Shown here piece by piece: positions 11,582 through 43,104 of a DNA stretch of 64,000 nt (position 1 is its first letter; each line of letters opens with the position of its first letter). The notes below the pieces were generated by a model. The model had not been told where the DNA came from, did not search any database, and worked only from the letters and a program-made list of their open reading frames with translations. The position numbers were made by a program, and so were the translations under genes. This DNA comes from Escherichia coli (GTDB lineage Bacteria > Pseudomonadota > Gammaproteobacteria > Enterobacterales > Enterobacteriaceae), in assembly GCF_013122565.1 (NCBI RefSeq), contig NZ_CP053258.1, one strand, 5' to 3'.

Positions 11582-11725
11582 GTGAAAAAGTTTCGATGGG
11601 TCGTTCTGGTTGTCGTGGTGTTGGCTTGCTTGCTGCTTTGGGCGCAGGTATTCAACATGATGTGCGATCAGGATGTACAATTTTTCAGCGGAATTTGTGC
11701 CATTAACCAGTTTATCCCGTGGTGA
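11582..11725 (+). CDS. mgrB: Small membrane protein MgrB (PhoQ feedback inhibitor), 47 aa
   Basis: GTG start preceded by GGAG SD; translates to [47 protein letters not shown]. Below the ORF-track size cutoff. Confidence 0.85.
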
Positions 11726-11799
11726 TATCATTTTTTCAGCACTAGATTTTCTTCCTCTCCAGCAATGGTAGAATAGCGCCTCTACTCAGAGGTGGTGAA

Positions 11800-12087
11800 A
11801 TGAACGAAGTTGTAAATTCAGGCGTGATGAGCATTGCGTCTTTGGTTGTATCGGTGGTGGTTCTTCTTATCGGGCTCATCTTGTGGTTTTTTATCAATCG
11901 TGCCAGTTCACGGACTAACGAACAGATTGAACTGCTTGAGGCGTTGCTGGATCAGCAAAAACGTCAAAATGCACTGTTACGTCGTTTGTGCGAAGCAAAC
12001 GAACCTGAGAAAGCAGATAAAAAGGCCGTTGAGAGTCAAAAATCGGTTGAAGACGAAGATATTATTCGTCTGGTCGCCGAACGATAA
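11800..12087 (+). CDS. yebO: Small membrane protein YebO
   Basis: 95-aa ORF starting MNEVVNSGVMSIASLVVSVVVLLIGLILWFF. Confidence 0.85.
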   Translation: MNEVVNSGVMSIASLVVSVVVLLIGLILWFFINRASSRTNEQIELLEALLDQQKRQNALLRRLCEANEPEKADKKAVESQKSVEDEDIIRLVAER

Positions 12088-12754
12088 TCCTTCCTCAATC
12101 TTGAGTAACCCCGTCGTTGCAGGGTTACTCAATTCGTCCTGATTATACGCACTGTCATGGTGCAATTGCTTCAAATTAAAACTCTGGTCTGACTTCAAAT
12201 AATTATCATATTATTTATCTGCGTAACGGGATACCAGAAAAAATATTTACCCTATTAATTTATTAGGATGTTTACATCGGATTTTTGATTAAGCGTGGTA
12301 TTATTTATTAGCGAAACGTTTCTCTCTTGATTTTTTTACTCATTCATCAATTTTTCTTATTTTAAATTTACAATACCTTTGGGATTGACTTCTCTTTGGG
12401 GTAATTGATAGCCGTTAACTGCCTGTTTTATGAGAAAAAGTAATATAACTTTTTATTCATTGCATAGCAGAAAATGTGATATTGCACGCACTATGTAATA
12501 ACTTCTCCCACTGGCCTGGAACAACTGAACTTATTGAACTATGTTAGAAAATACGCCAGTTTAAGTATCTGTCTGAACTGGCAAGGTTAAGCACAATGAT
12601 ATATCGGCGCGTATTCCGTTGCATAAGTGTGCAAAAAAAGTGGAAGACGTATCGAGATTTGTGCGTCTGATCGAGACATGTTTAAAAATGGCTTGCCATA
12701 ATTAACGTTGTATGTGATAACAGATTTCGGGTTAAACGAGGTACAGTTCTGTTT

Positions 12755-12898
12755 ATGTGTGGCATTTTCAGTAAAGAAGTCCTGAGTAAACACGTTGACG
12801 TTGAATACCGCTTCTCTGCCGAGCCTTATATTGGTGCCTCATGCAGTAATGTGTCAGTTTTATCTATGTTATGCCTGCGGGCGAAGAAAACAATCTAA
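12755..12898 (+). CDS. yobF: Small protein YobF, 47 aa, co-transcribed with cspC
   Basis: ATG at 12755 translates to [47 protein letters not shown]; stop 12 nt before the cspC start. Below the ORF-track size cutoff. Confidence 0.85.
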
Positions 12899-12910
12899 GG
12901 AATTTTTCAA

Positions 12911-13120
12911 ATGGCAAAGATTAAAGGTCAGGTTAAGTGGTTCAACGAGTCTAAAGGTTTTGGCTTCATTACTCCGGCTGATGGCAGCAAAGACGTGTTC
13001 GTACACTTCTCTGCTATCCAGGGTAATGGCTTCAAAACTCTGGCTGAAGGTCAGAACGTTGAGTTCGAAATTCAGGACGGCCAGAAAGGTCCGGCAGCTG
13101 TTAACGTAACAGCTATCTGA
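12911..13120 (+). CDS. cspC: Cold-shock-family protein CspC
   Basis: 69-aa [40 protein letters not shown] with RNP1/RNP2 cold-shock motifs. Confidence 0.95.
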
Positions 13121-13166
13121 TCGAATCCACTGATCTGAAGTGTGAATACGCTTCAATCTCGCTATA

Positions 13167-13193
13167 AAGCCTCGTCGAATGCGAGGCTTTTTA
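13167..13193 (+). terminator. Rho-independent terminator downstream of cspC
   Basis: Stem gcctcg / cgaggc with 7-nt loop followed by a T5 run. Confidence 0.65.
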
Positions 13194-13285
13194 CTTTGCT
13201 TTATCTTCGCTCCAGTCGTTCGGATATTTGCCCGCCGCGTGATTCGCGTTACACTTGCGGCCTTTAGTATCCTGCCGGAGTTGTC

Positions 13286-14095
13286 ATGTCGTTTTCCTGT
13301 CCACTTTGCCATCAGCCTCTTTCGCGTGAAAAAAACAGCTATATCTGTCCCCAGCGACATCAGTTTGATATGGCGAAAGAAGGGTATGTCAATCTGCTGC
13401 CCGTTCAGCATAAACGGTCTCGTGATCCGGGCGACAGCGCGGAAATGATGCAAGCACGCCGCGCATTCTTAGATGCCGGACATTATCAGCCGCTGCGTGA
13501 TGCAATTGTCGCCCAACTGCGGGAACGGCTTGATGATAAGGCCACGGCGGTGCTGGATATTGGCTGTGGTGAAGGGTATTACACACACGCATTTGCCGAT
13601 GCGTTGCCCGAAATCACCACCTTTGGCCTGGATGTCTCGAAGGTAGCGATAAAAGCGGCGGCGAAACGCTATCCGCAGGTCACTTTTTGTGTCGCTTCCA
13701 GCCACCGTTTGCCGTTTTCCGATACCAGTATGGACGCCATAATACGTATTTACGCGCCGTGTAAAGCAGAAGAATTAGCGCGAGTAGTGAAGCCCGGCGG
13801 TTGGGTCATTACTGCCACGCCGGGACCGCGACATTTGATGGAGCTGAAGGGGCTGATTTACAATGAAGTACATCTTCATGCACCTCATGCAGAACAACTG
13901 GAAGGTTTTACATTACAGCAGAGTGATGAGTTGTGTTATCCGATGCGTCTTCGCGGTGATGAAGCCGTCGCATTATTGCAGATGACGCCGTTTGCCTGGC
14001 GTGCGAAGCCAGAAGTCTGGCAAACACTGGCAGCAAAAGAAGTGTTCGACTGCCAGACGGACTTTAATATTCACCTCTGGCAGCGTTCTTATTAA
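13286..14095 (+). CDS. rlmA: 23S rRNA m1G745 methyltransferase RlmA
   Basis: 269-aa ORF starting [28 protein letters not shown], with N-terminal Cys4 zinc motif and SAM-MTase motif [10 protein letters not shown]. Confidence 0.9.
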
Positions 14096-14658
14096 CCGTG
14101 GAAGTGCGTCCAGAGGATCTGGACGCCGATGCCGATCAGCACCAGCCCGCCGAGAATTTCCGCTTTTTTCCCAATAATTGAGCCGATAAAGCGACCAACC
14201 ATCATCCCTAATGTCGACATAATCAAGGTTGCACAACCAATGGCCAATGCGGTCGCGATAATGTTGACCTGAAGGAAAGCAAGACCAACACCCACAGCCA
14301 TGGCATCCAGGCTGGTGGCAATCGCGGTGGTTACCAGTAGCCAGAAACCGTGTCGACGGCGCGGTTCTTCATCTTCATCATCTGCGCCACGAAACCCCTC
14401 AATAATCATTCGCCCGCCGAGAAATATCAGCAGAACAAACGCAATCCAGTGGTTCCATTCAAGGACAAATCGGCTGGCTAACATGCCCATTCCCCAGCCG
14501 ATCAGCGGCGTCAGGGTTTCGACGGCACCAAAAATAAGGCCGGTTCGCAATGCTTCAGAAAATTTCGGTTTATGGAGGGTGGCACCTTTACCGATTGATG
14601 CAGCAAATGCATCCATCGACATACCAAACGCAAGAAGAACAGTAGCAGTGATATTCAT
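14092..14658 (-). CDS. mntP: Manganese efflux pump MntP
   Basis: ORF 14092-14901; start trimmed to [25 protein letters not shown] (188 aa). The upstream 243 nt of the ORF call is leader, not coding. Confidence 0.9.
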
Positions 14659-14779
14659 GACAACGTCCTGACCGGGGTATCCATAAAACACATCATCGCC
14701 CCCAGCAAACATGCATACATGAACAACAAGCCGCGATGGGTTTTCGCGTTCATGCAGGCATAGCGATTGATGTGCATAT

Positions 14780-14890
14780 GGTCTCGCCTGACTGAAAGTC
14801 TTCAGTCCGTACGTGCCACGTTTTGCAACGAGTATGTTGACACGTACATTTCCGGAATCTGGAAATTGGCTACTCCCCAAATGAGGGCGC
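14780..14890 (-). ncRNA. yybP-ykoY manganese riboswitch aptamer in the mntP 5' leader
   Basis: Minus-strand RNA contains GGGGAGUAGC (complement of 14869-14878) and GUCAACAUAC (complement of 14832-14841), both characteristic of the yybP-ykoY class, upstream of mntP. Confidence 0.6.
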
Positions 14891-15087
14891 AACCTTAACA
14901 TATTTTGAGAATATAAAACAACTGTTGGAATATATTATTTTATTGCTTTGTTGATAACGATTTTCATTTAGATTTATATATCAATGAAACGTTAAAATAA
15001 ATAACAAATAAGGGAAGAGGTAATATAGCCTAAGCTATGTCTGATTATTAAAAACACACTAAACATAGCTTTGGGTAAATTCATAAG

Positions 15088-15546
15088 TTATTGAGTTGAT
15101 ACGAGAAGCTTATAAAATTTTTCCAGATCGTCGATATTTCGAACGCGGATTAACAGCCGACGCTGTTCTAATTGCATCACCAACACGCCATCTTCCGACA
15201 AGTTTATCGCTTTGATTCGGCTATATTCAATCCAGACATTGGCGAAGAAAAAACCTTTTTGGTTAAAGATGATCTTCGGAACGCGGATCCAGAATATATA
15301 AAAACCCATCAGAGCCAGTGCGCTTAATAACCATGTCGTTATTAACGCACCATGATTCGTGACGTTGTTATAGATAAGAATGACAATCAATCCGACGAAG
15401 ATAACGCTATCGATGCGACCACGCCGGAGCAAAGGAATTGCCAGCAGGGTGGGGCCGTTACGGCGGGGCATGATGAACTGATCGTAGATCGCGAAGGCCA
15501 GGAGTGCGGCGATGAAAAGAATTAGTACCAGGTCCGTGATTGTCAT
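15088..15546 (-). CDS. yobD: UPF0266 inner membrane protein YobD
   Basis: 152-aa ORF starting [30 protein letters not shown]. Confidence 0.85.
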
Positions 15547-15557
15547 TAATCCTCCAG

Positions 15558-15584
15558 ATAAAAAAACGGGGCCAAAAGGCCCCG
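15558..15584 (-). terminator. Rho-independent terminator downstream of manZ
   Basis: Stem cggggcc / ggccccg with aaaa loop; the plus-strand A-run 15559-15566 gives a U-run after the hairpin on the minus strand. Confidence 0.6.
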
Positions 15585-15600
15585 GTAGTGTACAACAGTC

Positions 15601-16461
15601 TTACAGTCCCAGCAGGCCGCAAGCGTAACCAGCGATACCGATGACGAAGAAGCCAACGATGATCCACAGCGGGTTAACTTTTTTGCGCAACAGCCACATA
15701 CAAGCAAATGTCAGCAGCAGTGGCACAAGGCCTGGCATTAACTGGTCCAGAATAGTCTGGACGGTAGTAACGTGTTCTTTGCCCGTCTGGTCAGTAATGC
15801 GAGAGACAACCAGCGGGATGTTGACATGTGTCCACTTGTTAACTAATGCCCCCATGACAAACAGGCCGAGGATAGACGCCCCTTCCGTCAGTTTTTGCAG
15901 GAAGCCACCACCCATATCTTTAACGATATCGATACCTTTGGAGTAACCATACGCTACGCCGTAGTAACGGGTTGCCAGACGCACCAGGTTAAACAGGATG
16001 AAGAACAGCAGCGGACCTAACAGGCTGCCGCTCATCGCGATACCGGCACCCAGCGCTGCAAATACCGGACGTACGGTTCCCCAGAAGATCGGGTCGCCTA
16101 CGCCAGCCAGCGGCCCCATCAAACCGACTTTGATACCGTTGATAGCACCGTCATCGATCTCTGCGCCATTAGCACGCTGTTCTTCCAGCGCCAGGGTTAC
16201 GCCGAGAATCGGCGCAGCCACGAACGGCTGGGTGTTAAAGAACTCCAGGTGACGGCGAATAGCTTGTTTACGAGCTTCGTTGTTCTCAGGGTAGAGGCGA
16301 CGAATTGCCGGTACCATAGAGAAGCAGAAACCCAGTGCCTGCATACGTTCGAAGTTCCATGAACCCTGGAAGAGGTTAGAACGCAGGAAGACGCCACGAA
16401 TATCACTTTGAGTGAGTTTTTTCTCGGTGGTAGTTTGAGTTGTATCAACCATTTCGCTCAC
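15601..16461 (-). CDS. manZ: Mannose PTS EIID component
   Basis: 286-aa ORF starting MSEMVDTTQTTTEKKLTQSDIRGVFLRSNLFQGSWNFERMQALGF. Confidence 0.95.
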   Translation of the reverse strand: MSEMVDTTQTTTEKKLTQSDIRGVFLRSNLFQGSWNFERMQALGFCFSMVPAIRRLYPENNEARKQAIRRHLEFFNTQPFVAAPILGVTLALEEQRANGAEIDDGAINGIKVGLMGPLAGVGDPIFWGTVRPVFAALGAGIAMSGSLLGPLLFFILFNLVRLATRYYGVAYGYSKGIDIVKDMGGGFLQKLTEGASILGLFVMGALVNKWTHVNIPLVVSRITDQTGKEHVTTVQTILDQLMPGLVPLLLTFACMWLLRKKVNPLWIIVGFFVIGIAGYACGLLGL

Positions 16462-16464
16462 CTG

Positions 16465-17265
16465 TTAGTCCAGTTCGTTATCGAGATCGTTGTTACCAGC
16501 AGCCTGAGCAGGCGCACCGGCTACGCGGTTGTATTTCGGGCTAAGTTGGATGTAGAGCACTGCCATAACAGTACCAATCACACCCAGAGCAACCAGGTTA
16601 AAGTTGGTGAATGCTGCGGTTACGAAGCCGAGGTAGAAGAACGGCATCAGGTAGCCAGCACGCATCATGTTGATAACCATCGCATAACCAACCACCACGA
16701 TCATGCCACCGGCGATATTCAGACCATTGGTCACCACTTCCGGAATCGCATTCAGCATGTTCTGTACTTCGCTTGTACCAACAGACAGCGCAACGATGAC
16801 GGCCGGAATAGCCACACGCATTGCTTGCAGGAGCAGAGAAGAAACGTGGATCCAGGAAATCGCTGTCAGGTTGCCGTTATCAGCAGCCTTATCCGCAGCG
16901 TGCTGGAAAGCAACGGTGATAGTACGAACGATGATGGTCAGTACCTGGCCCGCAGCGGCCAGAGGGATTGCCAGTGCAATACCTGCACCAATGCTCTGAT
17001 GACCTGCGATAACCAGAATGGTAGAAATGATAGATGCCAGAGCGGCGTCAGGCGCAACTGCAGCACCGATGTTCATCCAGCCCAGCGCGATCATTTCCAG
17101 CGTACCACCGATAATAATACCGGTTTTCATATCCCCAAGAACGATACCCACCAGGGTACACGCGATTAGCGGACGGTGAAACTGAAATTCATCGAGGATT
17201 GATCCCATACCTGCGATACAGGCTACGATAAATACCAGCACAATTTGAAGAGTGGTAATCTCCAT
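16465..17265 (-). CDS. manY: Mannose PTS EIIC component
   Basis: 266-aa ORF starting MEITTLQIVLVFIVACIAGMGSILDEFQFHRP. Confidence 0.95.
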   Translation of the reverse strand: MEITTLQIVLVFIVACIAGMGSILDEFQFHRPLIACTLVGIVLGDMKTGIIIGGTLEMIALGWMNIGAAVAPDAALASIISTILVIAGHQSIGAGIALAIPLAAAGQVLTIIVRTITVAFQHAADKAADNGNLTAISWIHVSSLLLQAMRVAIPAVIVALSVGTSEVQNMLNAIPEVVTNGLNIAGGMIVVVGYAMVINMMRAGYLMPFFYLGFVTAAFTNFNLVALGVIGTVMAVLYIQLSPKYNRVAGAPAQAAGNNDLDNELD

Positions 17266-17327
17266 TGTACTTCTCCTGTTTACGTAAGACTAAAGTGTGA
17301 AAACTGAGTGATAATCAACACAATACG

Positions 17328-18299
17328 TTACTTATCGATTTTGCTGATCAGATCCATCATTTTCAGTTTCGGATCGGTGGAAACCTTACGGACTTCCAGC
17401 TCAATACCGCGCGCATTCAGTTTCTTGAACGCCTCGATATCTTTTTCATCAACCGAAACCGCGTTATTCACCTGGGTTTTACCCTGACGGAATGCCATAC
17501 CACCAACGTTAACAGAGGTGATTTTCACGCCGCCTTCAACGAGACGCTCTACATCTGTTGGGTTGGTAAATAACAGCATTACACGTTCGCCAGCATATTT
17601 CGGGTTGTTGTAGACGCGAATCATTTTGGCAACATCAACTACGTGTGCTGTTACGCCCGGAGGTGCAACCTGGGTGAGCAGTGTCTTACGAACGGTATCC
17701 GCAGCCACTTCATCACTAACAACAATAATACGGGAGACATTGGTTTCTTTAGTCCAGCGGGTGGCGACCTGACCGTGAATCAGACGGTCGTCGATACGCG
17801 CAAGGCCAATAACCATGTAGTCGTTTGGCCCCATTGGTTTTGCCGGAGTTGGAGCCGCTTTTGGTGCTGCCGCAGCGGGTGCTGGCGCGGCCTTTTCAAC
17901 CGGTTTGGCTTTCAGTGCTTTCACGCCTTCACGGCCTGTTTCTACTGCCAGCGCAACCAGTTCATCAAAGCTTGGGTCATCATCACGGGCCATTAACGTT
18001 TCCACGAGCATTGGAATGTTAACGCCTGCAATGACTTCATAATGCTCTTTGTCGACGACAATGCGGCTGGCAGCATTGAACGGGCTGCCTCCCCATGTAT
18101 CAACGAGAAACAGCACGCCTTTAGTGGTGTCGAGTTTTGCCAACTGAGCGTTGTACTTTTCAATCAGCGTTTCGGCATTTTCACCTGGAACGAAATCGAT
18201 CCAGCCAACGTTTTCCTGCTCGCCTAACAGCATTTCTGCCGTTTTAAGCAACTGCTCTGCAGCCCAACCATGTGTGCCTATAACAATAGCAATGGTCAC
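17328..18299 (-). CDS. manX: Mannose PTS EIIAB component
   Basis: 323-aa ORF starting MTIAIVIGTHGWAAEQLLKTAEMLLG, with Ala/Pro-rich linker between IIA and IIB. Confidence 0.95.
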   Translation of the reverse strand: MTIAIVIGTHGWAAEQLLKTAEMLLGEQENVGWIDFVPGENAETLIEKYNAQLAKLDTTKGVLFLVDTWGGSPFNAASRIVVDKEHYEVIAGVNIPMLVETLMARDDDPSFDELVALAVETGREGVKALKAKPVEKAAPAPAAAAPKAAPTPAKPMGPNDYMVIGLARIDDRLIHGQVATRWTKETNVSRIIVVSDEVAADTVRKTLLTQVAPPGVTAHVVDVAKMIRVYNNPKYAGERVMLLFTNPTDVERLVEGGVKITSVNVGGMAFRQGKTQVNNAVSVDEKDIEAFKKLNARGIELEVRKVSTDPKLKMMDLISKIDK

Positions 18300-18500
18300 T
18301 TGCTACCTCCTTTATTATCGTTAACACCTCAACGTGCCAGATGTATTTTTGAATCGTCGTCCACAATCGAATCGATTCAGATAAGGGCTACAACCAAAAA
18401 CCCCTGCGTTTCGCGATTTATTTTAGATATCGAAAAAATTATTTTATGTGATGAAGATCCGTAATTTAACTTTCGATTAGCAGAAATTTCGAAAGGTAAA
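18300..18500 (-). promoter_or_regulatory. manXYZ promoter region (expected CRP/Mlc control)
   Basis: AT-rich 462-bp divergent region between manX and yoaE, containing TGTGA-type CRP half-sites and AT-rich repeats; individual operators not resolved. Confidence 0.35.
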
Positions 18501-18761
18501 ATATCCTTGTCACATTCGTTTGCAAAGGAAGGTAAATCTTTGCCAAATCAGAGGCGTCTCTGATATGTTTAACTCCCGTTTAACAACCATGGAGTATAGG
18601 GCAGTAGCCCGCAGTATGGATCGTCACCGACGTCATTTCAGCATCAGGCCTTTTAACGCCTGCCTTTCTGGCACTCTATGCCGCACCTTTCGTTTGCATT
18701 TTGTCGTTACGCCTGCATTATTTCTGGCGTCGAATAGCTATTCCTTAAGCAGGAGCTTGTC

Positions 18762-20318
18762 ATGGAATTCTTAATGGACCCCTCAATTTGGGCGGGGCTA
18801 CTCACGCTTGTTGTTCTCGAAATTGTGCTGGGTATCGATAACCTGGTCTTCATCGCCATTCTTGCTGACAAACTGCCGCCAAAACAACGCGATAAAGCGC
18901 GTTTGCTGGGGTTATCACTGGCGCTGATTATGCGTCTGGGACTGCTGTCGCTGATTTCATGGATGGTCACGCTGACCAAACCGCTATTTACCGTCATGGA
19001 TTTCTCCTTCTCCGGACGCGACCTGATTATGTTGTTCGGGGGGATATTCTTGCTGTTCAAAGCAACAACCGAACTGCATGAACGGCTGGAAAACCGCGAT
19101 CATGATTCCGGCCACGGTAAAGGCTACGCCAGTTTCTGGGTGGTCGTCACACAGATTGTCATCCTTGACGCCGTCTTCTCGTTGGATGCGGTAATTACTG
19201 CAGTAGGGATGGTTAACCATCTGCCGGTGATGATGGCGGCGGTAGTGATTGCGATGGCGGTTATGTTGCTGGCATCCAAACCGCTGACGCGATTCGTTAA
19301 CCAGCACCCCACGGTGGTGGTGCTCTGTCTGAGCTTCCTGTTAATGATTGGTCTGAGTCTGGTGGCAGAAGGTTTCGGTTTCCACATTCCGAAAGGTTAC
19401 CTGTATGCCGCGATTGGCTTCTCGATCATCATCGAAGTGTTTAACCAGATTGCGCGTCGCAACTTTATTCGTCACCAGTCGACTTTGCCGCTGCGAGCGC
19501 GTACTGCCGATGCCATCCTGCGTTTGATGGGCGGGAAACGTCAGGCCAATGTTCAGCACGATGCCGATAACCCGATGCCGATGCCGATCCCGGAAGGTGC
19601 ATTTGCCGAAGAAGAACGTTACATGATTAACGGCGTACTGACGCTGGCGTCGCGTTCTCTGCGCGGGATCATGACGCCGCGCGGTGAAATAAGCTGGGTT
19701 GACGCTAATCTCGGGGTCGATGAAATCCGCGAGCAGCTGCTCTCCTCACCGCACAGCCTGTTCCCGGTATGTCGCGGTGAACTGGATGAAATCATCGGAA
19801 TCGTACGTGCTAAAGAACTGCTGGTGGCGCTGGAAGAGGGCGTTGATGTGGCGGCGATTGCTTCGGCGTCTCCGGCGATTATCGTCCCGGAAACCCTCGA
19901 TCCGATCAACCTGTTGGGCGTGCTGCGTCGTGCTCGCGGGAGCTTTGTTATCGTGACCAACGAGTTTGGTGTGGTACAAGGTCTGGTCACGCCGCTGGAT
20001 GTGCTGGAAGCCATTGCGGGTGAATTCCCGGACGCTGACGAAACGCCGGAAATCATTACTGATGGTGACGGCTGGCTGGTAAAAGGCGGTACAGATTTGC
20101 ATGCCTTGCAGCAGGCGCTTGATGTTGAGCACCTTGCCGATGACGATGATATCGCGACGGTCGCGGGCCTCGTGATCTCGGCAAATGGTCACATTCCCCG
20201 TGTGGGCGATGTGATTGATGTAGGGCCACTGCATATCACCATCATTGAAGCCAATGATTATCGTGTTGATCTGGTTCGCATTGTTAAAGAGCAACCGGCG
20301 CACGATGAAGATGAGTAA
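18762..20318 (+). CDS. yoaE: TerC-family membrane protein with CBS and CorC domains
   Basis: 518-aa ORF starting [39 protein letters not shown]; AGGAG SD 6 nt upstream. Confidence 0.9.
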
Positions 20319-20321
20319 GCG

Positions 20322-21920: not shown

Positions 21921-22007
21921 GCGGGCCACCCTGTAAGCGTATGGCGACAAACGCCTGACGCAACAGTGGAAGTGTAGTGGGGAAAATTACAGCAGACGAG
22001 AAAGCGG

Positions 22008-22040: not shown

Positions 22041-22050
22041 GTAAGAAGTA

Positions 22051-25542: not shown

Positions 25543-25615
25543 CAGTCCTGACTCTACTGGCTATGTGCCGGGTAGCATGAAATAATTAGCGCCAACAATT
25601 TAGCAGGAGTTAACA

Positions 25616-25795
25616 ATGTTTGCAGGTTTACCTTCACTCACCCATGAACAGCAGCAAAAAGCTGTCGAGCGGATCCAGGAACTGATGGCACAAGGGATGA
25701 GCAGCGGCCAGGCAATCGCGTTGGTGGCAGAAGAGCTGCGTGCCAACCATTCCGGCGAGCGAATCGTGGCGCGTTTTGAGGATGAAGACGAGTAA
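25616..25795 (+). CDS. yoaH: UPF0181 small protein YoaH, 59 aa
   Basis: ATG at 25616 preceded by AGGAG SD; translates to [59 protein letters not shown]. Below the ORF-track size cutoff. Confidence 0.8.
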
Positions 25796-25853
25796 CACAC
25801 TAATCCGTATTGATTTCGTTATACAAGCCGATGATTATTTGATTGTGAGAAAA

Positions 25854-32331: not shown

Positions 32332-32355
32332 GACGCCCACTAAAGAGAATACAAT

Positions 32356-33483: not shown

Positions 33484-33489
33484 AATCTT

Positions 33490-33532
33490 CCGAAGCCGGA
33501 CTGGGCGCGCTCAGCGCCACATCCGGCTTCGG
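33490..33532. repeat. Compound palindromic hairpin between rnd and the yeaX fragment
   Basis: Outer arms ccgaagccgga / tccggcttcgg enclosing inner stem ggcgc / gcgcc; no clear U-tract on either strand. Confidence 0.45.
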
Positions 33533-33536
33533 CAAA

Positions 33537-33950
33537 CTACAAATCCAACACCAGGCGTTTACCCTTCGCACGCGAACAACAGATCAACATACTTTGCTGG
33601 CTGGCACGCTCTTCATCGCTAAAATACTGATCCCGATGGTCAGCTTCACCTTCCAGTATTGCCGTTTCGCAGGTTCCGCATACCCCTTCACGACATAAAC
33701 ATTCCACTTTCGCGGCTTTATTATTTTCAATAACCTGCAAAATAGTCATCTCTTCCGGCACCACAAACTCTTTTCCGGAACGGGCAAGCACCAGGGTAAA
33801 TGCATCGCCGGTTTTGTCTTCGATAGCAAATTGCTCAAAGTGCAGCGTATCGGCGGCGATGTCCAGACGCGCAGCTTCACTTCTTACCGCTTCAATTAGC
33901 GCCTCGGGGCCACAGGTATAAACGTGTGTGCCAGGTTCGATATCCGCCAT
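33537..33950 (-). pseudogene. yeaX: 3' fragment of yeaX (cntB-like oxidoreductase): end of NAD-binding domain plus plant-type 2Fe-2S ferredoxin domain
   Basis: ORF 33537-34016 (159 aa). From MADIEPGTHVYTCGPEALIEAVRSEAARL onward it looks like the C-terminus of an FNR-type reductase followed by a 2Fe-2S domain (CREGVCGTCE ... LICC). The N-terminal FAD/FMN-binding domain is absent and yeaW/yeaV are not found upstream. Confidence 0.6.
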
Positions 33951-33992
33951 TGACATCCTCCACGTCCTGAAGGACGAGGAGGATGTCAATGG
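33947..33992. repeat. 46-bp near-perfect palindrome at the 5' edge of the yeaX fragment
   Basis: ccattgacatcctccacgtcc-tgaa-ggacgaggaggatgtcaatgg: two 21-nt arms with one mismatch. The minus-strand reading of the left arm gives GGAGG, 6 nt spacer, ATG (the MADIEPG start). Confidence 0.85.
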
Positions 33993-34136
33993 CAGGGTAT
34001 GAGTTGTATATTGCATTTAACGAATTAATTATTTTTGTGTTATATAAATTAAACAATTAAGAATTCGGAAAGCCATAAAACACGAAACGGAAACAATAAA
34101 AGGTGAAATGACGCAGGTTATTAACTGCAAAGAACG

Positions 34137-34165
34137 AATAAAAAAACCGCGTCAGTGACGCGGTT
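34137..34165 (-). terminator. Rho-independent terminator downstream of dmlA
   Basis: Stem aaccgcg / cgcggtt preceded on the plus strand by an A-run, giving a U-run after the hairpin on the minus strand; 20 nt past the dmlA stop. Confidence 0.6.
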
Positions 34166-34184
34166 CAAATAAACTGGTTTGACC

Positions 34185-35270: not shown

Positions 35271-35372
35271 TGGGTTCTCACTTCCTGACCATCAAAATTG
35301 ACAACATCACCATCCTATAATTGACTGAAAAGGAATTAATCCCCGTAACTGGTGAAACATAAAACACGAATC

Positions 35373-36296
35373 ATGAATAATTTACCGCTGCTGAATGATT
35401 TGCGCGTCTTTATGCTGGTGGCTCGCCGGGCTGGTTTTGCCGCCGTGGCGGAAGAACTGGGCGTTTCACCGGCGTTCGTCAGCAAGCGCATCGCCTTGCT
35501 GGAGCAAACGCTAAACGTGGTGTTGTTACACCGCACCACCCGCCGCGTCACCATTACCGAAGAAGGAGAGCGGATTTATGAATGGGCGCAGCGGATTTTG
35601 CAGGATGTCGGTCAGATGATGGACGAACTTTCTGACGTGCGTCAGGTGCCACAGGGGATGCTGCGTATTATCAGCAGCTTTGGTTTTGGACGACAGGTGG
35701 TGGCTCCGGCGTTATCAGCGCTGGCGAAGGCGTATCCGCAACTGGAATTACGTTTTGATGTGGAAGACCGGCTGGTCGATTTGGTCAATGAAGGTGTCGA
35801 TCTCGATATTCGCATTGGCGATGACATCGCCCCTAATTTAATCGCCCGCAAACTGGCGACCAATTACCGCATTCTCTGCGCGTCGCCGGAATTTATTGCG
35901 CAACATGGCGCGCCGAAACATTTAACCGATCTTTCTGCATTGCCGTGCCTGGTCATTAAAGAGCGCGATCATCCTTTTGGTGTCTGGCAATTACGCAATA
36001 AAGAAGGCCACCATGCGATTAAAGTCACCGGCCCACTGTCGTCTAATCATGGAGAAATTGTCCATCAGTGGTGTCTCGATGGGCAGGGGATTGCTCTGCG
36101 CTCCTGGTGGGATGTTAGCGAAAACATTGCCAGTGGTCATTTAGTGCAAGTGCTACCGGAATATTACCAGCCAGCGAACGTCTGGGCCGTTTATGTTTCA
36201 AGGCTGGCGACGTCAGCGAAAGTGCGGATAACGGTAGAATTTTTACGCCAGTATTTTGCCGAGCACTACCCGAATTTTTCACTGGAGCATGCCTGA
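35373..36296 (+). CDS. dmlR: LysR-family regulator DmlR (YeaT)
   Basis: ORF 35352-36296; start trimmed to MNNLPLLNDLRVFMLVARRAGF (307 aa); divergent from dmlA. Confidence 0.85.
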   Translation: MNNLPLLNDLRVFMLVARRAGFAAVAEELGVSPAFVSKRIALLEQTLNVVLLHRTTRRVTITEEGERIYEWAQRILQDVGQMMDELSDVRQVPQGMLRIISSFGFGRQVVAPALSALAKAYPQLELRFDVEDRLVDLVNEGVDLDIRIGDDIAPNLIARKLATNYRILCASPEFIAQHGAPKHLTDLSALPCLVIKERDHPFGVWQLRNKEGHHAIKVTGPLSSNHGEIVHQWCLDGQGIALRSWWDVSENIASGHLVQVLPEYYQPANVWAVYVSRLATSAKVRITVEFLRQYFAEHYPNFSLEHA

Positions 36297-36353
36297 TTAA
36301 TGATTCAATTATCGGGTTGATATCAGGTTAAAACCTGATTTTCTCCTTTCTAA

Positions 36354-37061
<708 letters not shown>

Positions 37062-37144
37062 TGCTTTCAGCCCGCGTTGTCGCGGGCTTCCCATCTGTAA
37101 TTCTCCCTGATTCTTCTTTGATACGGTGCTAAAAAGTAACCAAT

Positions 37145-37167
37145 AAATGGTATTTAAAATGCAAATT
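37145..37167 (+). promoter_or_regulatory. NsrR-operator-like inverted repeat upstream of yeaR-yoaG
   Basis: AAATGGTATTT-A-AAATGCAAATT resembles the 11-1-11 NsrR consensus; sits about 65 nt upstream of yeaR, a known NsrR/NarL-regulated operon. Confidence 0.4.
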
Positions 37168-37233
37168 ATCAGGCGTACCCTGAAACGGCTGGAATAAACC
37201 GTTTTCAGCGCATTCACCGAAGGAGGGAAAAGG

Positions 37234-37593
37234 ATGCTGCAAATCCCACAGAATTATATTCATACGCGCTCAACGCCTTTCTGGAATAAACAAACTGCGC
37301 CTGCCGGAATATTCGAACGTCATCTTGATAAAGGAACGCGCCCGGGGGTTTACCCACGCCTTTCCGTTATGCATGGGGCGGTCAAATATCTCGGCTACGC
37401 TGATGAACACAGTGCAGAGCCTGATCTGGTGATCCTTATCGAAGCGGGGCAGTTTGCGGTGTTCCCTCCAGAAAAGTGGCACAACATTGAAGCCATGACT
37501 GACGATACTTATTTCAACATTGACTTCTTCGTTGCTCCTGAAGTCCTGATGGAAGGCGCGCAACAACGGAAAGTCATTCATAACGGGAAATGA
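37234..37593 (+). CDS. yeaR: DUF1971 protein YeaR
   Basis: 119-aa ORF starting MLQIPQNYIHTRSTPFWNKQTAPAGIFERH. Confidence 0.85.
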   Translation: MLQIPQNYIHTRSTPFWNKQTAPAGIFERHLDKGTRPGVYPRLSVMHGAVKYLGYADEHSAEPDLVILIEAGQFAVFPPEKWHNIEAMTDDTYFNIDFFVAPEVLMEGAQQRKVIHNGK

Positions 37594-37596
37594 ATC

Positions 37597-37779
37597 ATGG
37601 GCAAAGCAACGTATACCGTGACCGTCACCAATAACAGCAATGGCGTTTCTGTCGATTATGAAACAGAGACGCCGATGACTTTGCTGGTGCCAGAAGTGGC
37701 GGCTGAAGTGATAAAAGATCTGGTGAATACCGTGCGTTCTTATGACACGGAAAACGAACATGATGTTTGTGGTTGGTAA
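37597..37779 (+). CDS. yoaG: DUF1869 small protein YoaG
   Basis: 60-aa ORF MGKATYTVTVTNNSNGVSVDYETETPMT, 3 nt after the yeaR stop. Confidence 0.8.
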   Translation: MGKATYTVTVTNNSNGVSVDYETETPMTLLVPEVAAEVIKDLVNTVRSYDTENEHDVCGW

Positions 37780-37926
37780 TTATCACTGATCGTTGATGGC
37801 GCAATTTCTGCGCCATCGCAAAAAAATCCTCCGTGATGCTCGTCACAAATCTTGCCCTCCCGATGTTGTGCTATGCTTTTTATCAGCGACTAACCCGCTA
37901 ATGCAAAACAGATAAGTGAGGAAACA

Positions 37927-38175
37927 ATGGGTATTCTGTCATGGATTATTTTTGGGCTTATTGCCGGTATTCTGGCGAAGTGGATCATGCCAGGTAAAGA
38001 TGGTGGTGGATTCTTTATGACTATCCTGCTGGGAATAGTCGGTGCCGTAGTCGGCGGATGGATCAGCACGCTGTTTGGCTTTGGTAAAGTCGATGGCTTC
38101 AATTTTGGCAGCTTCGTGGTTGCCGTTATTGGTGCGATTGTCGTGCTATTTATCTACAGGAAGATTAAAAGTTAA
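37927..38175 (+). CDS. yeaQ: GlsB/YeaQ/YmgE-family membrane protein YeaQ
   Basis: 82-aa ORF starting MGILSWIIFGLIAGILAKWIMPGKDGGG. Confidence 0.85.
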   Translation: MGILSWIIFGLIAGILAKWIMPGKDGGGFFMTILLGIVGAVVGGWISTLFGFGKVDGFNFGSFVVAVIGAIVVLFIYRKIKS

Positions 38176-38189
38176 CGCGTAAATTGCAC

Positions 38190-38223
38190 AAAGGCTGCAC
38201 ACAGGCAGCCTTTGCTATTTTTT
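38190..38223 (+). terminator. Rho-independent terminator downstream of yeaQ
   Basis: Stem aaggctgc / gcagcctt with 6-nt loop followed by tttgctatttttt. Confidence 0.65.
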
Positions 38224-38233
38224 AGAGGTGACG

Positions 38234-38308
38234 TTACCACCATCCCAGCTCAGTGCCGAGTACGACAATAATCGCCACACCCATCATAATGATCGTTGTT
38301 TTTTTCAT
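38234..38308 (-). CDS. yoaJ: Small membrane protein YoaJ, 24 aa
   Basis: Minus-strand translation MKKTTIIMMGVAIIVVLGTELGWW, a single TM helix. Below the ORF-track size cutoff. Confidence 0.7.
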   Translation of the reverse strand: MKKTTIIMMGVAIIVVLGTELGWW

Positions 38309-38310
38309 CT

Positions 38311-38409
38311 TTATGCTCCCGGGGCAGCATAGCCGCCAATAAAAAACCATGCTAAAAATACGACCGCTGTAATGAAGATTACAACCGGAAAAATAATACC
38401 GATTCGCAT
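38311..38409 (-). CDS. yoaK: Small membrane protein YoaK, 32 aa
   Basis: Minus-strand translation MRIGIIFPVVIFITAVVFLAWFFIGGYAAPGA; its stop lies 2 nt upstream of the yoaJ start. Below the ORF-track size cutoff. Confidence 0.7.
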   Translation of the reverse strand: MRIGIIFPVVIFITAVVFLAWFFIGGYAAPGA

Positions 38410-38441
38410 GTTATCACCAATCAAAAGGATGTGAATACGCC

Positions 38442-39467
38442 TCAGGAATGTAGCGCTGGATGCGCGACAAAAGGTGTTTTCTGTTTGTGTTTTTTCTCCT
38501 GATACATCGCGATATCGGCAGCATGCAGGGCACTGTCTGCATCGGTTGTTTCAGGATCGACTTCTACTATGCCAAGACTGGCACCAGGATAATACAAATC
38601 AACATCACCTAAGTGATATTCTCCGCGTATTTGCTGCTGAATACGTTCTCGCAGCGACGAAATATCCGCATTCTCGTTGTTCAGTGAAACAACCAAAAAC
38701 TCATCACCGCCGAGACGACCAATAACTTCGCCATTTTGCTGGAGCGTATTAAGGCGCTCGCCAACCTGAATGAGGAACAAATCACCACTATTATGACCAA
38801 AACGATCGTTGATTAATTTGAAGTTATCCAGATCGATAAACGCGATCATTATCTTATGGTTAAGATGCCGGGCGAGGGAAAACAGCGTCGTCAGATTTTC
38901 AAAAATCGCCCGCCGATTCGGTAGCCCGGTTAACGAGTCGGTATACGATTGCGCAATCAGCGCAGCATTGGCTTCGCGCAGCTGTTCAACCAACGCCTCT
39001 TTTTGAATATATTGTGCAATCAGTCCGGCGAATAACTGTAAAACCTGTTCCGCGCGTTCACTCCACTGGCGCTTCTCACTGCTGGCGGCGCAAAGCGTGC
39101 CATAGAATGATCCATCCGGTAAGTGAATTGGCGTGCTCAGAAATGTGGTGATGCCAAGATTGCGTGCCGCAATACAGTCGCCCCAACGGTCAGGGACTTC
39201 ATCGCTGAAAAAGCAGTTTTCATCAATGGCGCGTTTGCATAACGAGTAATCCCACGAGACGGTAAAATTCTCCGGGATGTGCATTTTCTGGCTGTTACGG
39301 GCAAACATAATATGCTGCAGGCGCGCTTCGACATCCACTTTGGTCAGGTAGGTTGATTCCATATCAGTGACCATTTCCAGCATCTCCAGAAGCTGTCGGA
39401 CCAGACTTTCCAGTGACTGTTCTTTGGCAAGGGATTGCGAGACGCGGTCGATGATCTGATCTGACAC
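38442..39467 (-). CDS. dgcP: Diguanylate cyclase DgcP (YeaP), GAF plus GGDEF
   Basis: ORF 38442-39596; start trimmed to GTG (VSDQIIDRVSQSLAKEQ), 341 aa; intact RLGGDEF motif. Confidence 0.85.
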   Translation of the reverse strand: MSDQIIDRVSQSLAKEQSLESLVRQLLEMLEMVTDMESTYLTKVDVEARLQHIMFARNSQKMHIPENFTVSWDYSLCKRAIDENCFFSDEVPDRWGDCIAARNLGITTFLSTPIHLPDGSFYGTLCAASSEKRQWSERAEQVLQLFAGLIAQYIQKEALVEQLREANAALIAQSYTDSLTGLPNRRAIFENLTTLFSLARHLNHKIMIAFIDLDNFKLINDRFGHNSGDLFLIQVGERLNTLQQNGEVIGRLGGDEFLVVSLNNENADISSLRERIQQQIRGEYHLGDVDLYYPGASLGIVEVDPETTDADSALHAADIAMYQEKKHKQKTPFVAHPALHS

Positions 39468-39649
39468 GAAACAACTCCAGGATACGGCGGGTAAATGCTG
39501 ATTATTTAATCTTTGCAGGCATGATAAAACATCATCAACAAAGATGAAACAATGCGTAATATGATTTGAGTGAATGTAATAAAAATAGTGCTGCAAAACA
39601 AAACGATACCGCGATACTCTAAGTCTGGATAAATATGTGAGATCAATAA

Positions 39650-39904
39650 ATGAAAATTATCAGTTTTGTTCTGCCTTGCTTGCTGGTCCTGGCTGGTTGT
39701 TCAACCCCTTCTCAGCCAGAAGCACCCAAACCGCCGCAGATTGGTATGGCAAATCCGGCGTCGGTCTATTGCCAGCAGAAGGGCGGGACGCTCATTCCAG
39801 TGCGGACAGCGCAAGGGGTCAGCAACAATTGCAAATTACCGGGCGGTGAAACGATTGATGAATGGGCATTGTGGCGACGGGACCATCCGGCTGGTGAAAA
39901 ATAA
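39650..39904 (+). CDS. yoaF: DUF333 lipoprotein YoaF
   Basis: 84-aa ORF with lipobox MKIISFVLPCLLVLAGC. Confidence 0.85.
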   Translation: MKIISFVLPCLLVLAGCSTPSQPEAPKPPQIGMANPASVYCQQKGGTLIPVRTAQGVSNNCKLPGGETIDEWALWRRDHPAGEK

Positions 39905-39925
39905 CCGCCGGATGCTGTACTAAAA

Positions 39926-40273
39926 TCACAAGCTACGTAGCCAGTCGGCCAGCACCAGCGCATGGTTCTGCGTGGTGTTTTTGGCTGAGTAGAGCAGGGT
40001 CAGCGGCTGTTTTTTGGCGATGTCCGCCAGCCGCTTTCCTTCTTGCTCGTGTTGCGCCAGTTCTGCAAGATATTGCTCGCGAAAGGTTGCAAAATCGACG
40101 ACTTCGCCGTGAAAGGCTTTGCGCAGTTCCGTTGACGGTGTGATTTCTTTATCCCACTCATCAAGGGCTAAATCGGTTTTTTTGATACCGCGCGGCCAGA
40201 GGCGGTCGACCAGTACGCGATAACCATCGCTCTGTTCAGCCGGATCATAAACGCGTTTGCACTGAATATTCAT
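39926..40273 (-). CDS. yeaO: DUF488 protein YeaO
   Basis: ORF 39926-40294; start trimmed to MNIQCKRVYDPAEQSDGYRV (115 aa). Confidence 0.85.
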   Translation of the reverse strand: MNIQCKRVYDPAEQSDGYRVLVDRLWPRGIKKTDLALDEWDKEITPSTELRKAFHGEVVDFATFREQYLAELAQHEQEGKRLADIAKKQPLTLLYSAKNTTQNHALVLADWLRSL

Positions 40274-40327
40274 CGTGTTTGTTCTCCCTTTCACGCATGA
40301 TTTGTCACGTCACTATAGCACCGGATA

Positions 40328-41509
40328 TTAGCGAATTTCTTTGTCTCTCCCGGCGCAAAGTCCGAAAATCGCCATCAGTAGTGACAGTATTGCAACACCC
40401 ATCAGTGGTGCGGACCAGTCACCGATAGCATCGTGTATTTTCCCCATCAGCGGCGGCCCACAGGCTGCCAGCAAATACCCGACGGATTGTGCCATCCCCG
40501 AGAGTGCCGCCGCCTGATGCGCAGAACTAGCCCGCAGACCAATGAACGTCAATCCCAGTATCATTGCTGCGCCGGAACCAAAGCCGAAAAGCAGAGTCCA
40601 GGTGATCGCGTGCGCTGGCATAAAGCAGAGCCCAACCGCGCCCACTGCGCACATCAAGGCAACGAACGCTGCAATACCACGCTGATCTTTCACATGATGT
40701 AAGAAAAGAGGGATCAGCAAACCGGGCGCTGCTGTGGCTAGTTGCAGCAAACCATGCAGTGAACCCGCCTGTGCTTCGCTATAGCCGTGACTGATGAGGA
40801 TCGCCGGAAGCCAGCCAATAATCACGTAATAGACCAGTGAGTTGATCCCAAGAAACAATGTTACCTGCCAGGCAAGCGGCGAACGCCAGATACCCCGAGT
40901 ATGTAAGGCGCGTGAAGTACTCAAATTTGCATGTTGTTGGCTTCGCCACTGTGGCAGCCATAAAAAAAGAGCCAGCAGAGGAAAACACATCAGCATGAGC
41001 AAGGCGCCTTGCCAGCCAAAACCGTTCAAAGCCAGCGGCACTACCATAGCCGATCCCAGGGCCGCCGCAGCTCCCATTGTCAGGGAATATGCGCCGGTAA
41101 GTCTGGCGACGGAATGAGGGAAATCGCGTTTAATTAATCCTGGCAGTAAGACATTACCTAATGCAATCCCACCACCAATGACCGCTGTACCGCCAAATAA
41201 TAAGTAAGGCGAAGGGAGAGAGCGAATTGCGATACCTGCACAGATCAAAAGTAACGCGGCAAACAGGCTACGTTCCATACCAAAACGTCGCGCCACCGGG
41301 GCAGCCAGAGGTGAGATTAGCGCAAAGGCCAATAATGGCAGGGTGGTTAATAAGCCGGTTTGCGCCGTCGTCAGCGAGTAAGCGGAACGAATCGTATCGA
41401 GTAACGGTGCTGCGCCGGTGAAGGTGACGCGTAATGTTGTGGCAATCATTAGAATGCCAGCGATAAGGACAATCCTGTTTTTGCCGCTTAATGAAGTTGA
41501 ACAGGTCAT
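40328..41509 (-). CDS. nimT: MFS exporter NimT (YeaN)
   Basis: 393-aa multi-TM ORF starting MTCSTSLSGKNRIVLIAGILMIATTLRV. Confidence 0.9.
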   Translation of the reverse strand: MTCSTSLSGKNRIVLIAGILMIATTLRVTFTGAAPLLDTIRSAYSLTTAQTGLLTTLPLLAFALISPLAAPVARRFGMERSLFAALLLICAGIAIRSLPSPYLLFGGTAVIGGGIALGNVLLPGLIKRDFPHSVARLTGAYSLTMGAAAALGSAMVVPLALNGFGWQGALLMLMCFPLLALFLWLPQWRSQQHANLSTSRALHTRGIWRSPLAWQVTLFLGINSLVYYVIIGWLPAILISHGYSEAQAGSLHGLLQLATAAPGLLIPLFLHHVKDQRGIAAFVALMCAVGAVGLCFMPAHAITWTLLFGFGSGAAMILGLTFIGLRASSAHQAAALSGMAQSVGYLLAACGPPLMGKIHDAIGDWSAPLMGVAILSLLMAIFGLCAGRDKEIR

Positions 41510-41605
41510 ATGCTTCTCATTGTTACAAACGAGGCTGTACCTTACCGTTTTTATTGTTATGTTGAATCAAGCTAAAATGACAAATTATCGCTAAATTCGG
41601 ACAAA

Positions 41606-42427
41606 ATGATGCACAGGTTGAATCTCAATGGCTATGAACCCGACCGACACCATGAAGCCGCGGTCGCATTTTGTATTCACGCCGGAACGGATGAGTTAAC
41701 CAGTCCTGTACATCAGCACCGCAAAGGACAGCTGATACTGGCATTACATGGTGCAATTACCTGTACGGTGGAAAATGCTTTGTGGATGGTGCCGCCACAA
41801 TATGCGGTTTGGATACCGGGCGGGGTGGAACATAGTAATCAAGTGACAGCTAACGCTGAACTCTGTTTTCTGTTTATCGAACCCAGCGCAGTGACAATGC
41901 CGACAACATGTTGCACATTGAAAATATCGCCCTTATGCCGGGAATTAATTTTAACTCTGGCAAACAGGACGACGACTCAGCGTGCTGAGCCGATGACCCG
42001 CAGATTAATTCAGGTCCTGTTTGATGAACTCCCTCAGCAGCCACAACAACAGCTGCACCTACCCGTTTCTTCTCATCCTAAAATCCGCGCGATGGTGGAG
42101 ATGATGGCGAAAGAGCCCGTCGAGTGGGGGTCATTGGGGCAATGGGCTGGCTTTTTTGCGATGAGTGAACGCAATCTTGCCCGACTGATAGTAAAAGAGA
42201 CGGGGTTGAGTTTTCGCCAGTGGCGACAGCAGTTACAGCTGATTATGGCGCTTCAGGGATTAGTGAAAGGCGATACTGTACAGAAAGTTGCTCATACGCT
42301 GGGGTATGATTCAACAACGGCCTTTATTACTATGTTTAAGAAAGGCCTGGGGCAAACGCCAGGCCGATATATTGCGGGATTAACTACTGTTTCCCCACAA
42401 TCAGCGAAACCAGACCCGCGGCAATAA
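41606..42427 (+). CDS. nimR: AraC-family regulator NimR (YeaM)
   Basis: 273-aa ORF with cupin N-domain and C-terminal AraC HTH; divergent from nimT. Confidence 0.9.
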
Positions 42428-42830
42428 GCGGGCCAACCGGTACGCCGCGAAACAGCGCTACGCCTAAAACAGTGCCCACCAGCAGCCCAGCAACCAGTTG
42501 CGGCTGGCTGCCCATTAACGTCACGCCGCGCCCACCCAGCCAGGAGACAATAACGCCTACTGCAATTGCCACCAGCGATTTCCAGTTCAGAAACGAGTGA
42601 ATCAAGGTTGAGGGCGGTAGCGTCCCGCTGGCGATGGGGGCCATAACGCCAATCGTCAGAATGATTATCCCGATACTTAGCCCCTGTTTTTCAATCCACG
42701 GGAAAAAGGTGCTTAACGGTGTGACGCGGACAATGATCAACACCAGAATTGAAACGGCGACAGTGGTGTTATGACTGATAAAGCCCAGCGCAGCTAACCC
42801 GAGCAGGATCAGCAAAGTGACATCAAACAT
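42384..42830 (-). CDS. yeaL: UPF0756 membrane protein YeaL
   Basis: 148-aa multi-TM ORF starting [27 protein letters not shown]. Confidence 0.85.
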
Positions 42831-42999
42831 CGTGGTTTCCTTGCCAAAAAATAATAAGCCTGCTTACTTTACGCTTGCTGCAGGAAGGAAGTAGAAAATC
42901 TTTACGTTTTTTGCATAAAAAATCAGGCGAACTGTCATCAAACTGCCATTTGTGCACGCTAACAATAACGTGAAAACAGCTATCTCCCGGGGGCATGCT

Positions 43000-43104
43000 A
43001 TGAACGATCAAATGTTCGTCGAGACACTGATTATCACGTCATCGTTTTTTGCCATTGCGGTTGTGCTGGTTTTGTCCGTTCTGCTTATTGAACGGACAGG
43101 CTAG
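43000..43104 (+). CDS. yoaI: Small membrane protein YoaI, 34 aa
   Basis: ATG at 43000 translates to [34 protein letters not shown]; its stop abuts the convergent proX stop. Below the ORF-track size cutoff. Confidence 0.7.

Follow-up and report, generated by a model that had tools for sequence, protein, structure and literature searches.

Six Short Genes Between mgrB and yoaI in an Escherichia coli Chromosome Segment Are Almost Certainly Intact Orthologues of Annotated K-12 Small-Protein Genes

The 64,000-nucleotide stretch of Escherichia coli DNA considered here (the window; RefSeq assembly GCF_013122565.1, contig NZ_CP053258.1) carries six genes—mgrB, yobF, yoaH, yoaJ, yoaK, and yoaI—that are missing from the track of open reading frames (ORFs) that accompanied the sequence. 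It is almost certain that all six are intact orthologues of annotated, experimentally supported E. coli small-protein genes, held under purifying selection and lying off the track only because their products are shorter than 60 amino acids (aa). Because nothing beyond synonymous substitutions separates them from the reference, they are already known, annotated K-12 genes in another strain background, and no new biology attaches to them. The window as a whole is an E. coli-type chromosome segment in reverse orientation, collinear with K-12 MG1655 from position 1,920,347 to approximately 1,845,000 at about 98.5% identity. A 20-kilobase (kb) slice of it is matched over at least 80% of its length by 5,419 of 5,426 complete E. 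coli genomes, with a top identity of 98.7%.

The window was translated at the coordinates implied by synteny, and the K-12 genes used for comparison were cut from the annotated NC_000913.3 sequence. The interval under study, 11582–43104, runs from the start of mgrB to the stop of yoaI. At its left end, mgrB (11582–11725, + strand; GTG start, 47 aa) and yobF (12755–12898, + strand; 47 aa) show no nucleotide (nt) or aa differences from K-12 b1826 and b1824, respectively. The same holds for yoaK (38311–38409, − strand; 32 aa) and b4676. The remaining three differ from K-12 without any change of protein sequence: yoaH (25616–25795, + strand; 59 aa) by two synonymous nt from b1811, yoaJ (38234–38308, − strand; 24 aa) by one from b4675, and yoaI (43000–43104, + strand; 34 aa) by six from b1788. 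Gene order, orientation, neighbours, lengths, start codons, and protein sequences are thus all the same as in MG1655, and the divergence within the six genes amounts to 0–6 synonymous nt per gene. A first-pass annotation, made from the letters alone, had named these genes; its identifications were right, including lengths and order, with 100% aa identity to the K-12 proteins. The exact sequences also occur in public databases under the names MGRB_ECOLI, YOBF_ECOLI, YOAH_ECOLI, YOAJ_ECOLI, YOAK_ECOLI, and YOAI_ECOLI, so that the failure to match annotated small proteins by BLASTP, which that annotation had said would count against it, was not observed. Each of the six exact proteins is present on at least 1000 public contigs. 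All six genes are annotated in K-12 RefSeq, and the Prokaryotic Genome Annotation Pipeline (PGAP) annotates mgrB, yobF, yoaH, yoaJ, and yoaK in a syntenic strain, in a stretch that stops before yoaI.

Family models give a concordant picture, as each of the six proteins produced a full-length match to curated Pfam or NCBIfam models above the respective cut-offs. MgrB matched PF13998 at 66.3 bits (cut-off 27) and the equivalog NF007635 at 89.9 bits (cut-off 40), the latter over residues 1–47 of 47, and YoaH matched PF03701 (UPF0181) at 100.9 bits against 23.5 and the equivalog NF003476 at 114.2 bits against 72. Equivalog matches were likewise obtained for YoaJ (NF011343, 60.4 bits; cut-off 54), YoaK (NF033821, 69.1 bits; cut-off 32), and YoaI (NF041475, 79.8 bits; cut-off 45; residues 1–34 of 34), the last of which matched no Pfam family. 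YobF scored 105 bits against PF10736 (DUF2527/DUF2627; cut-off 25) and matched no NCBIfam model. Dedicated NCBI equivalog hidden Markov models (HMMs) therefore exist for five of the six proteins. An intact yoaK/yoaJ locus occurs in 5,403 of the 5,426 complete E. coli genomes, and an intact yoaI locus in 5,409; wherever such a locus was sampled, PGAP annotates yoaK/yoaJ and yoaI. For the sole truncated yoaK/yoaJ match (H71), at 29% coverage, the annotation lists nothing.

Short ORFs are common, and this is the root of the most obvious objection. The window holds 738 mechanical ORFs of 20–59 aa against 234 of at least 60 aa, and the existence of a short ORF thus means nothing by itself; some of the six could in principle be chance ORFs that happen to resemble known small proteins. 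Conservation of such a frame might mislead as well, given that antisense mirror frames of real genes may also look conserved. An annotation-free comparison was made across genera. Since the yoaK, yoaJ, and yoaI proteins are too short for a direct homology search, the neighbouring YeaQ was used as an anchor to collect 80 Enterobacterales loci, which were then searched for the three genes with tblastn. In 30 of the 80 loci, the yoaK-yoaJ pair was found directly downstream of yeaQ and in convergent orientation to it; these loci come from Escherichia, Citrobacter, Salmonella, Enterobacter, Leclercia, and two metagenome-assembled genomes. In the loci of this set from Klebsiella, Serratia, Yersinia, Pantoea, or Erwinia, tblastn did not find the pair. 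yoaI was found in 16 of the anchored loci. In the annotated frames, the ratio of nonsynonymous to synonymous substitution rates (dN/dS) was 0.05 for yoaK, 0.16 for yoaJ, and 0.21 for yoaI, with variable third positions at 30 of 31, 21 of 23, and 30 of 33 codons, respectively. Most control frames were broken by stops or gave dN/dS above 1, the exception being the expected antisense mirror frame. These substitution patterns indicate strong purifying selection on yoaK, yoaJ, and yoaI in their annotated frames. The chance-ORF explanation is consequently refuted: all six proteins are identical to K-12 over their full length, they pass curated HMM cut-offs, they have named public counterparts, and the selection is specific to the frame. 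Published detection at the protein level (PMC11429745; PMC10470546; 10.1101/511675; PMC4597795) points the same way, and the probability left to this alternative is negligible.

The absence of the six genes from the track has a simple origin. As the first-pass annotation had pointed out, all of them fall below the 60-aa cutoff, the longest same-frame mechanical ORFs being 47, 47, 59, 38, 37, and 50 aa for mgrB, yobF, yoaH, yoaJ, yoaK, and yoaI, respectively. Its broader statement that such a cutoff misses this class of gene is true by construction, but describes a property of the track rather than the state of genome annotation. At two of the loci, the track does more than omit the gene: a 62-aa antisense mechanical ORF (11543–11731, − strand) covers all of mgrB, and a 66-aa one (25600–25800, − strand) covers all of yoaH, so that a spurious wrong-strand ORF is displayed where a real small gene lies.

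Re-running gene calling with a 20-codon minimum and scoring of Shine–Dalgarno (SD) sequences, the check proposed alongside that statement, turns out to be insufficient. When 1,029 candidate start/stop pairs of 20–59 aa between 11 and 44 kb of the window were ranked by SD strength, mgrB, yobF, yoaH, yoaJ, and yoaI came between 9th and 32nd (the top ~3%), yoaL, a further small gene described below, came 130th, and yoaK only 379th. A threshold that retains the five best-placed genes lets in approximately 28 false candidates over these 33 kb. A frame-aware conservation screen of 58 mostly intergenic ORFs of 10–59 aa between 27.9 and 48.2 kb recovered yoaK and yoaJ, together with shadows of these two and of yoaI in antisense or overlapping frames; yoaI was recovered by way of its antisense shadow. 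No further convincing conserved, unannotated short ORF emerged among the 58 screened. One 22-aa candidate in the yoaG-yeaQ intergenic region (37833–37901, + strand) was rejected as a gene (six loci, dN/dS 0.45, 50% aa identity); its conservation probably reflects the yeaQ promoter or 5′ untranslated region. In short, curated small-protein HMMs or frame-aware comparative conservation do recover genes of this length, whereas SD scoring with a lowered cutoff does not suffice.

SD strengths within the top ~3% for five of the six genes, curated HMMs, identity to K-12, synteny, dN/dS values, and a Pho box upstream of yoaI together establish that these genes are real and intact. Several considerations nevertheless weigh against so comfortable a reading. 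The SD sequence of yoaK is weak (−2.8 kcal/mol), and scans for sigma-70 promoters around the six genes performed at or below shuffle expectation and were not used. Upstream of mgrB, a canonical PhoP box is not confirmed: two half-sites read by eye, TGTTTA (11516–11521) and AGTTTA (11535–11540), have starts 19 nt apart, and the canonical spacing is 11 nt. Functional claims for all six genes are transferred from K-12 rather than drawn from expression in this strain, and what can be said of mechanism for YoaH, YoaJ, YoaK, and YobF consists of anatomy and inference. Translational coupling between yoaK and yoaJ, finally, is probable as judged from their spacing only.

The first of the six, mgrB, is monocistronic, lies between yobH and yebO, and is preceded by a GGAG SD sequence (−6.6 kcal/mol). 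Its upstream region differs from that of K-12 at one position in the 25 nt compared. The protein sequence is the same as in K-12, with C28 and C39 both present; these periplasmic cysteines, which accompany an N-terminal transmembrane (TM) helix, are established functional residues of MgrB. The K-12 protein is an established inhibitor of PhoQ, and both a peak in retapamulin-assisted ribosome profiling (Ribo-RET) and western blots have been published for it (PMC11429745). By transfer from that published work, MgrB encoded in the window would be a PhoP-induced, single-pass inner-membrane peptide; by binding PhoQ, it would inhibit this kinase and so close a negative feedback loop.

yoaH is divergent from pabB and carries an AGGAG SD sequence (−6.9 kcal/mol). 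Its 59 aa include no hydrophobic segment, so that YoaH is likely a soluble member of the UPF0181/YoaH family; it is probably helical. A search for relatives of solved structure returned none for YoaH and none for YobF.

At the other end of the interval, yoaI has the best SD sequence of the six (GGGGG, −8.6 kcal/mol; rank 9 of 1,029), placed directly before the ATG at 43000, and it meets the convergent yeaK stop codon to stop codon, that of yeaK being at 43105. The consensus Pho box consists of two 7-mers with an 11-bp period. A predicted site of near-consensus sequence, CTGTCAT-CAAA-CTGCCAT, was found by direct reading at 42932–42949 (+ strand), 51–68 nt upstream of the yoaI ATG, and its presence here is consistent with the published PhoB-dependent transcription of yoaI (PMC11429745). 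The same study reported that a YoaI-SPA fusion accumulates in low Mg2+ by western blot, that a Ribo-RET peak lies at the annotated start, and that YoaI interacts with EnvZ in a bacterial adenylate cyclase two-hybrid (BACTH) assay (PMC11429745). By transfer from the K-12 protein, YoaI would thus be a PhoB-activated single-pass membrane peptide, raised in low Mg2+, that binds EnvZ and thereby links PhoR-PhoB to EnvZ-OmpR, as has been published. In the two systems of this kind, MgrB-PhoQ and YoaI-EnvZ, a small protein regulates a sensor kinase, and the window's MgrB and YoaI are those very proteins.

Some GenBank depositors annotate yoaI differently, as a 50-aa ORF that begins at GTG 42952. A mechanical ORF of that length does exist (42952–43104, + strand), and 50-aa versions labelled "hypothetical protein" fall into the same 90% cluster as the shorter form. 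However, the strong SD sequence sits right before ATG 43000, similarity across genera begins at the Met-Asn-Asp of the 34-aa form, and the 50-aa ORF was not among the full-length conserved matches in the conservation screen. The upstream GTG also lies just 3 nt after the Pho box, which suggests that the PhoB-dependent transcript starts downstream of it. Together with the Ribo-RET peak at the annotated start (PMC11429745), these observations make the longer form very improbable, and the 34-aa yoaI is retained.

The two minus-strand genes among the six are yoaK and yoaJ. They had been described as a tandem with a 2-nt gap, and this is correct: only positions 38309–38310 lie between the yoaK stop and the yoaJ ATG. 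The yoaJ SD sequence, GGGAG (38316–38320), falls within the last codons of yoaK, and yoaK itself begins 32 nt past the end of dgcP (stop at 38442). On the other side, yoaJ (ends at 38234) converges with yeaQ (ends at 38175), and a terminator scan together with direct reading placed between them a hairpin with a perfect 10-bp stem (38189–38214), probably a terminator that serves both genes. The encoded peptides, of 32 and 24 aa, have one architecture, in which the N-terminus is basic, there is a single TM segment, and the conserved C-terminal tail is short (GGYAAPGA in YoaK, LGWW in YoaJ). A yeaP(dgcP)-yoaK-yoaJ operon has been mapped by RNA-seq (PMC4620388), YoaK has been detected as a tagged protein (10.1101/511675), and YoaJ is an integral membrane protein of N-in/C-out topology (PMC4597795). 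In E. coli, YoaK and YoaJ would accordingly be single-pass membrane peptides, both translated from the mRNA that also carries dgcP. Initiation at yoaJ would use the SD sequence in the 3′ end of yoaK, 0–2 nt after the yoaK stop, and synthesis of the two is probably coupled.

Across genera, the pairing is strict. Wherever one of the two genes occurs (30 of 30 loci), it stands in tandem with the other, and YoaK retains 81–100% aa identity across these syntenic loci from five genera. Escherichia, Citrobacter, and Salmonella have a 2-nt spacer, and in Enterobacter and Leclercia its length is 0 nt; it is thus the tight juxtaposition, and not the exact distance, that is conserved. Two departures were noted within Citrobacter. 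In Citrobacter sp. MGH106, the yoaK stop has been lost; YoaK is 33 aa long there, and its gene ends in a TGA that shares 1 nt with the yoaJ ATG. In C. sedlakii, an A7-to-A6 run in yoaJ represents a frameshift or else a sequencing error in the homopolymer. The occurrence of dgcP tracks that of the pair closely: dgcP lies directly upstream in 28 of the 30 yoaK-positive loci and is absent from all 50 yoaK-negative loci. DgcP is nonetheless far less conserved than its small neighbour, with 66–70% aa identity as compared with 81–100% for YoaK. In the two remaining loci, those of Salmonella arizonae and C. sedlakii, yoaK-yoaJ faces yoaF and dgcP is missing.

The co-occurrence in 30 of 30 loci, the 0–2 nt spacer, the yoaJ SD sequence inside yoaK, the dgcP distribution, and the stronger constraint on YoaK than on DgcP invite a bolder proposal. 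YoaK and YoaJ might form an obligate, translationally coupled two-peptide unit in the membrane that the Escherichia-Salmonella-Citrobacter-Enterobacter lineage acquired together with DgcP, a soluble GAF-GGDEF cyclase, as a single module, and that acts either with DgcP (for example, in membrane tethering or gating) or, as a heterodimer, with some other partner. We consider this unlikely, if conceivable; an obligate partnership with DgcP is weakened by the two species that keep the pair without the cyclase gene. YoaK and YoaJ share their architecture with the small single-pass kinase regulators MgrB and YoaI, but only interaction with and cleavage by RseP has been reported for them, RseP having been found to cleave YoaJ, YoaK, and MgrB in vitro (PMC10470546). 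That YoaK or YoaJ might work in the manner of MgrB is, by analogy, speculation.

yobF, in turn, is closely linked to the gene that follows it. Its end is separated from cspC (12911–13120) by 12 nt, no terminator was detected between the two by terminator scan, and a terminator-like hairpin was found by the same scan after cspC (13166–13190). In published work, YobF is induced by low Mg2+, its His-tagged form is membrane-associated, its deletion causes a growth defect, and its expression is supported by Ribo-RET and western blot (PMC11429745). By extension from K-12, YobF would be made from a yobF-cspC transcript as a stress-induced, membrane-associated protein. In Klebsiella, Raoultella, and Scandinavium, the YobF homologues have 38 aa, equal to the 38 positions of the Pfam model, and the nine C-terminal residues of E. 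coli YobF are thus lineage-specific.

The position of yobF suggests another role: yobF, and by analogy yoaK/yoaJ after dgcP, might serve mainly as a leader or coupled ORF that tunes its neighbour, here cspC, with the peptide being secondary, just as yoaL serves yoaE. Beyond the 12-nt gap and the missing terminator, two observations favor this. The Rfam cspA thermoregulator model RF01766 covers yobF and cspC as a single unit (12735–13195, + strand; 139.6 bits), and the nearby yoaL is a proven regulatory leader ORF. A cspA-type structured leader over yobF was examined and rejected, however, as it is the cspC coding region and terminator that supply the RF01766 score, whereas the yobF part of the alignment is weak and contains many non-canonical pairs. 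Moreover, it is the amino-acid sequence of YobF that is conserved, as its 105-bit Pfam match and the Klebsiella and Raoultella homologues attest; the His-tagged protein associates with the membrane, and loss of yobF impairs growth in low Mg2+ (PMC11429745). For the dgcP neighbours, conservation of YoaK (dN/dS 0.05) exceeds that of DgcP, and the pair persists in S. arizonae and C. sedlakii where dgcP does not. The leader explanation is accordingly held to be decidedly unlikely.

A seventh annotated gene below 60 aa, yoaL, lies in the same interval and was not on the list of six given by the first-pass annotation, whose entries were otherwise all right. It occupies 18616–18774 (+ strand), encodes 52 aa identical to K-12 b4751, and matches PF22867 at 138.1 bits against a cut-off of 27. 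Because it is contained in an 84-aa, TTG-started mechanical ORF (18520–18774), yoaL is on the track with the wrong start and hence not "missing" in the same sense. Its 3′ end overlaps the start of yoaE/mgpA (18762) by 13 nt. The gene was first annotated as 69 aa (PMC6001520) and was shortened to 52 aa by ribosome profiling, in a study that also found a stop codon in yoaL to strongly reduce yoaE-lacZ expression (10.1101/511675); YoaL has since been treated as the yoaE leader peptide (PMC12421838). Among regulatory leader peptides such as YoaL (for yoaE/mgpA) and MgtL (for mgtA), the yoaL of this window is the published one, and the position of yobF before cspC is analogous. Unlike pure leader ORFs, the six listed genes are conserved in their amino acids and give stable, functional peptides where these have been tested.

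Three structural changes separate the window from K-12, namely a yeaV-yeaW-yeaX′ deletion, the absence of ydjE-ydjL, and the presence of a gene for a SIMPL-domain protein; the small genes are untouched by all three. The first removes yeaV, yeaW, and the 5′ part of yeaX, and none of the 5,426 complete E. coli genomes has its junction (33950–33998). The filler there amounts to 49 nt, which include a 40-nt near-perfect palindrome (33950–33989) with a folding energy of −27 kcal/mol (z = −9.8). This palindrome is 96% identical to the terminal 27 nt of the annotated right end of K-12 IS609, an insertion sequence (IS) of the IS200/IS605 family, and further copies occur in a P1-like plasmid, beside insQ/tnpB, and in Stx-type phages, where they lie after cI. 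No IS609 sequence was found elsewhere in the window, and the feature thus looks like a solitary IS-end hairpin at an IS-associated deletion. The loss of yeaVWX is probably linked to an IS200/IS605-family element that has left nothing but the end hairpin. This deletion is the only unusual thing found in the window, and it is unrelated to the six small genes.

The other two differences are ordinary accessory-genome variation. ydjE-ydjL, which occupies 9.1 kb in K-12, is absent at 55494–55638, an absence common to 1,089 complete E. coli genomes, and the SIMPL-domain protein gene, located between ansA and sppA at approximately 57399–58232, is likewise present in 943 genomes, including O157:H7. Two structured RNAs were also observed. 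The Mn2+ riboswitch of the mntP leader (yybP-ykoY, RF00080) at 14790–14886 (− strand) scores 40.1 bits, under the Rfam gathering score of 45, so that a scan of the window at the gathering threshold misses it. The small RNA SroD (RF00370; 32245–32330, + strand) scores 115.2 bits and spans the 3′ end of fadD and the fadD-rnd intergenic region, as in K-12.

The significance of these loci is that of a calibration point only: a track drawn at 60 aa drops known functional genes, among them two regulators of two-component signalling, MgrB and YoaI.

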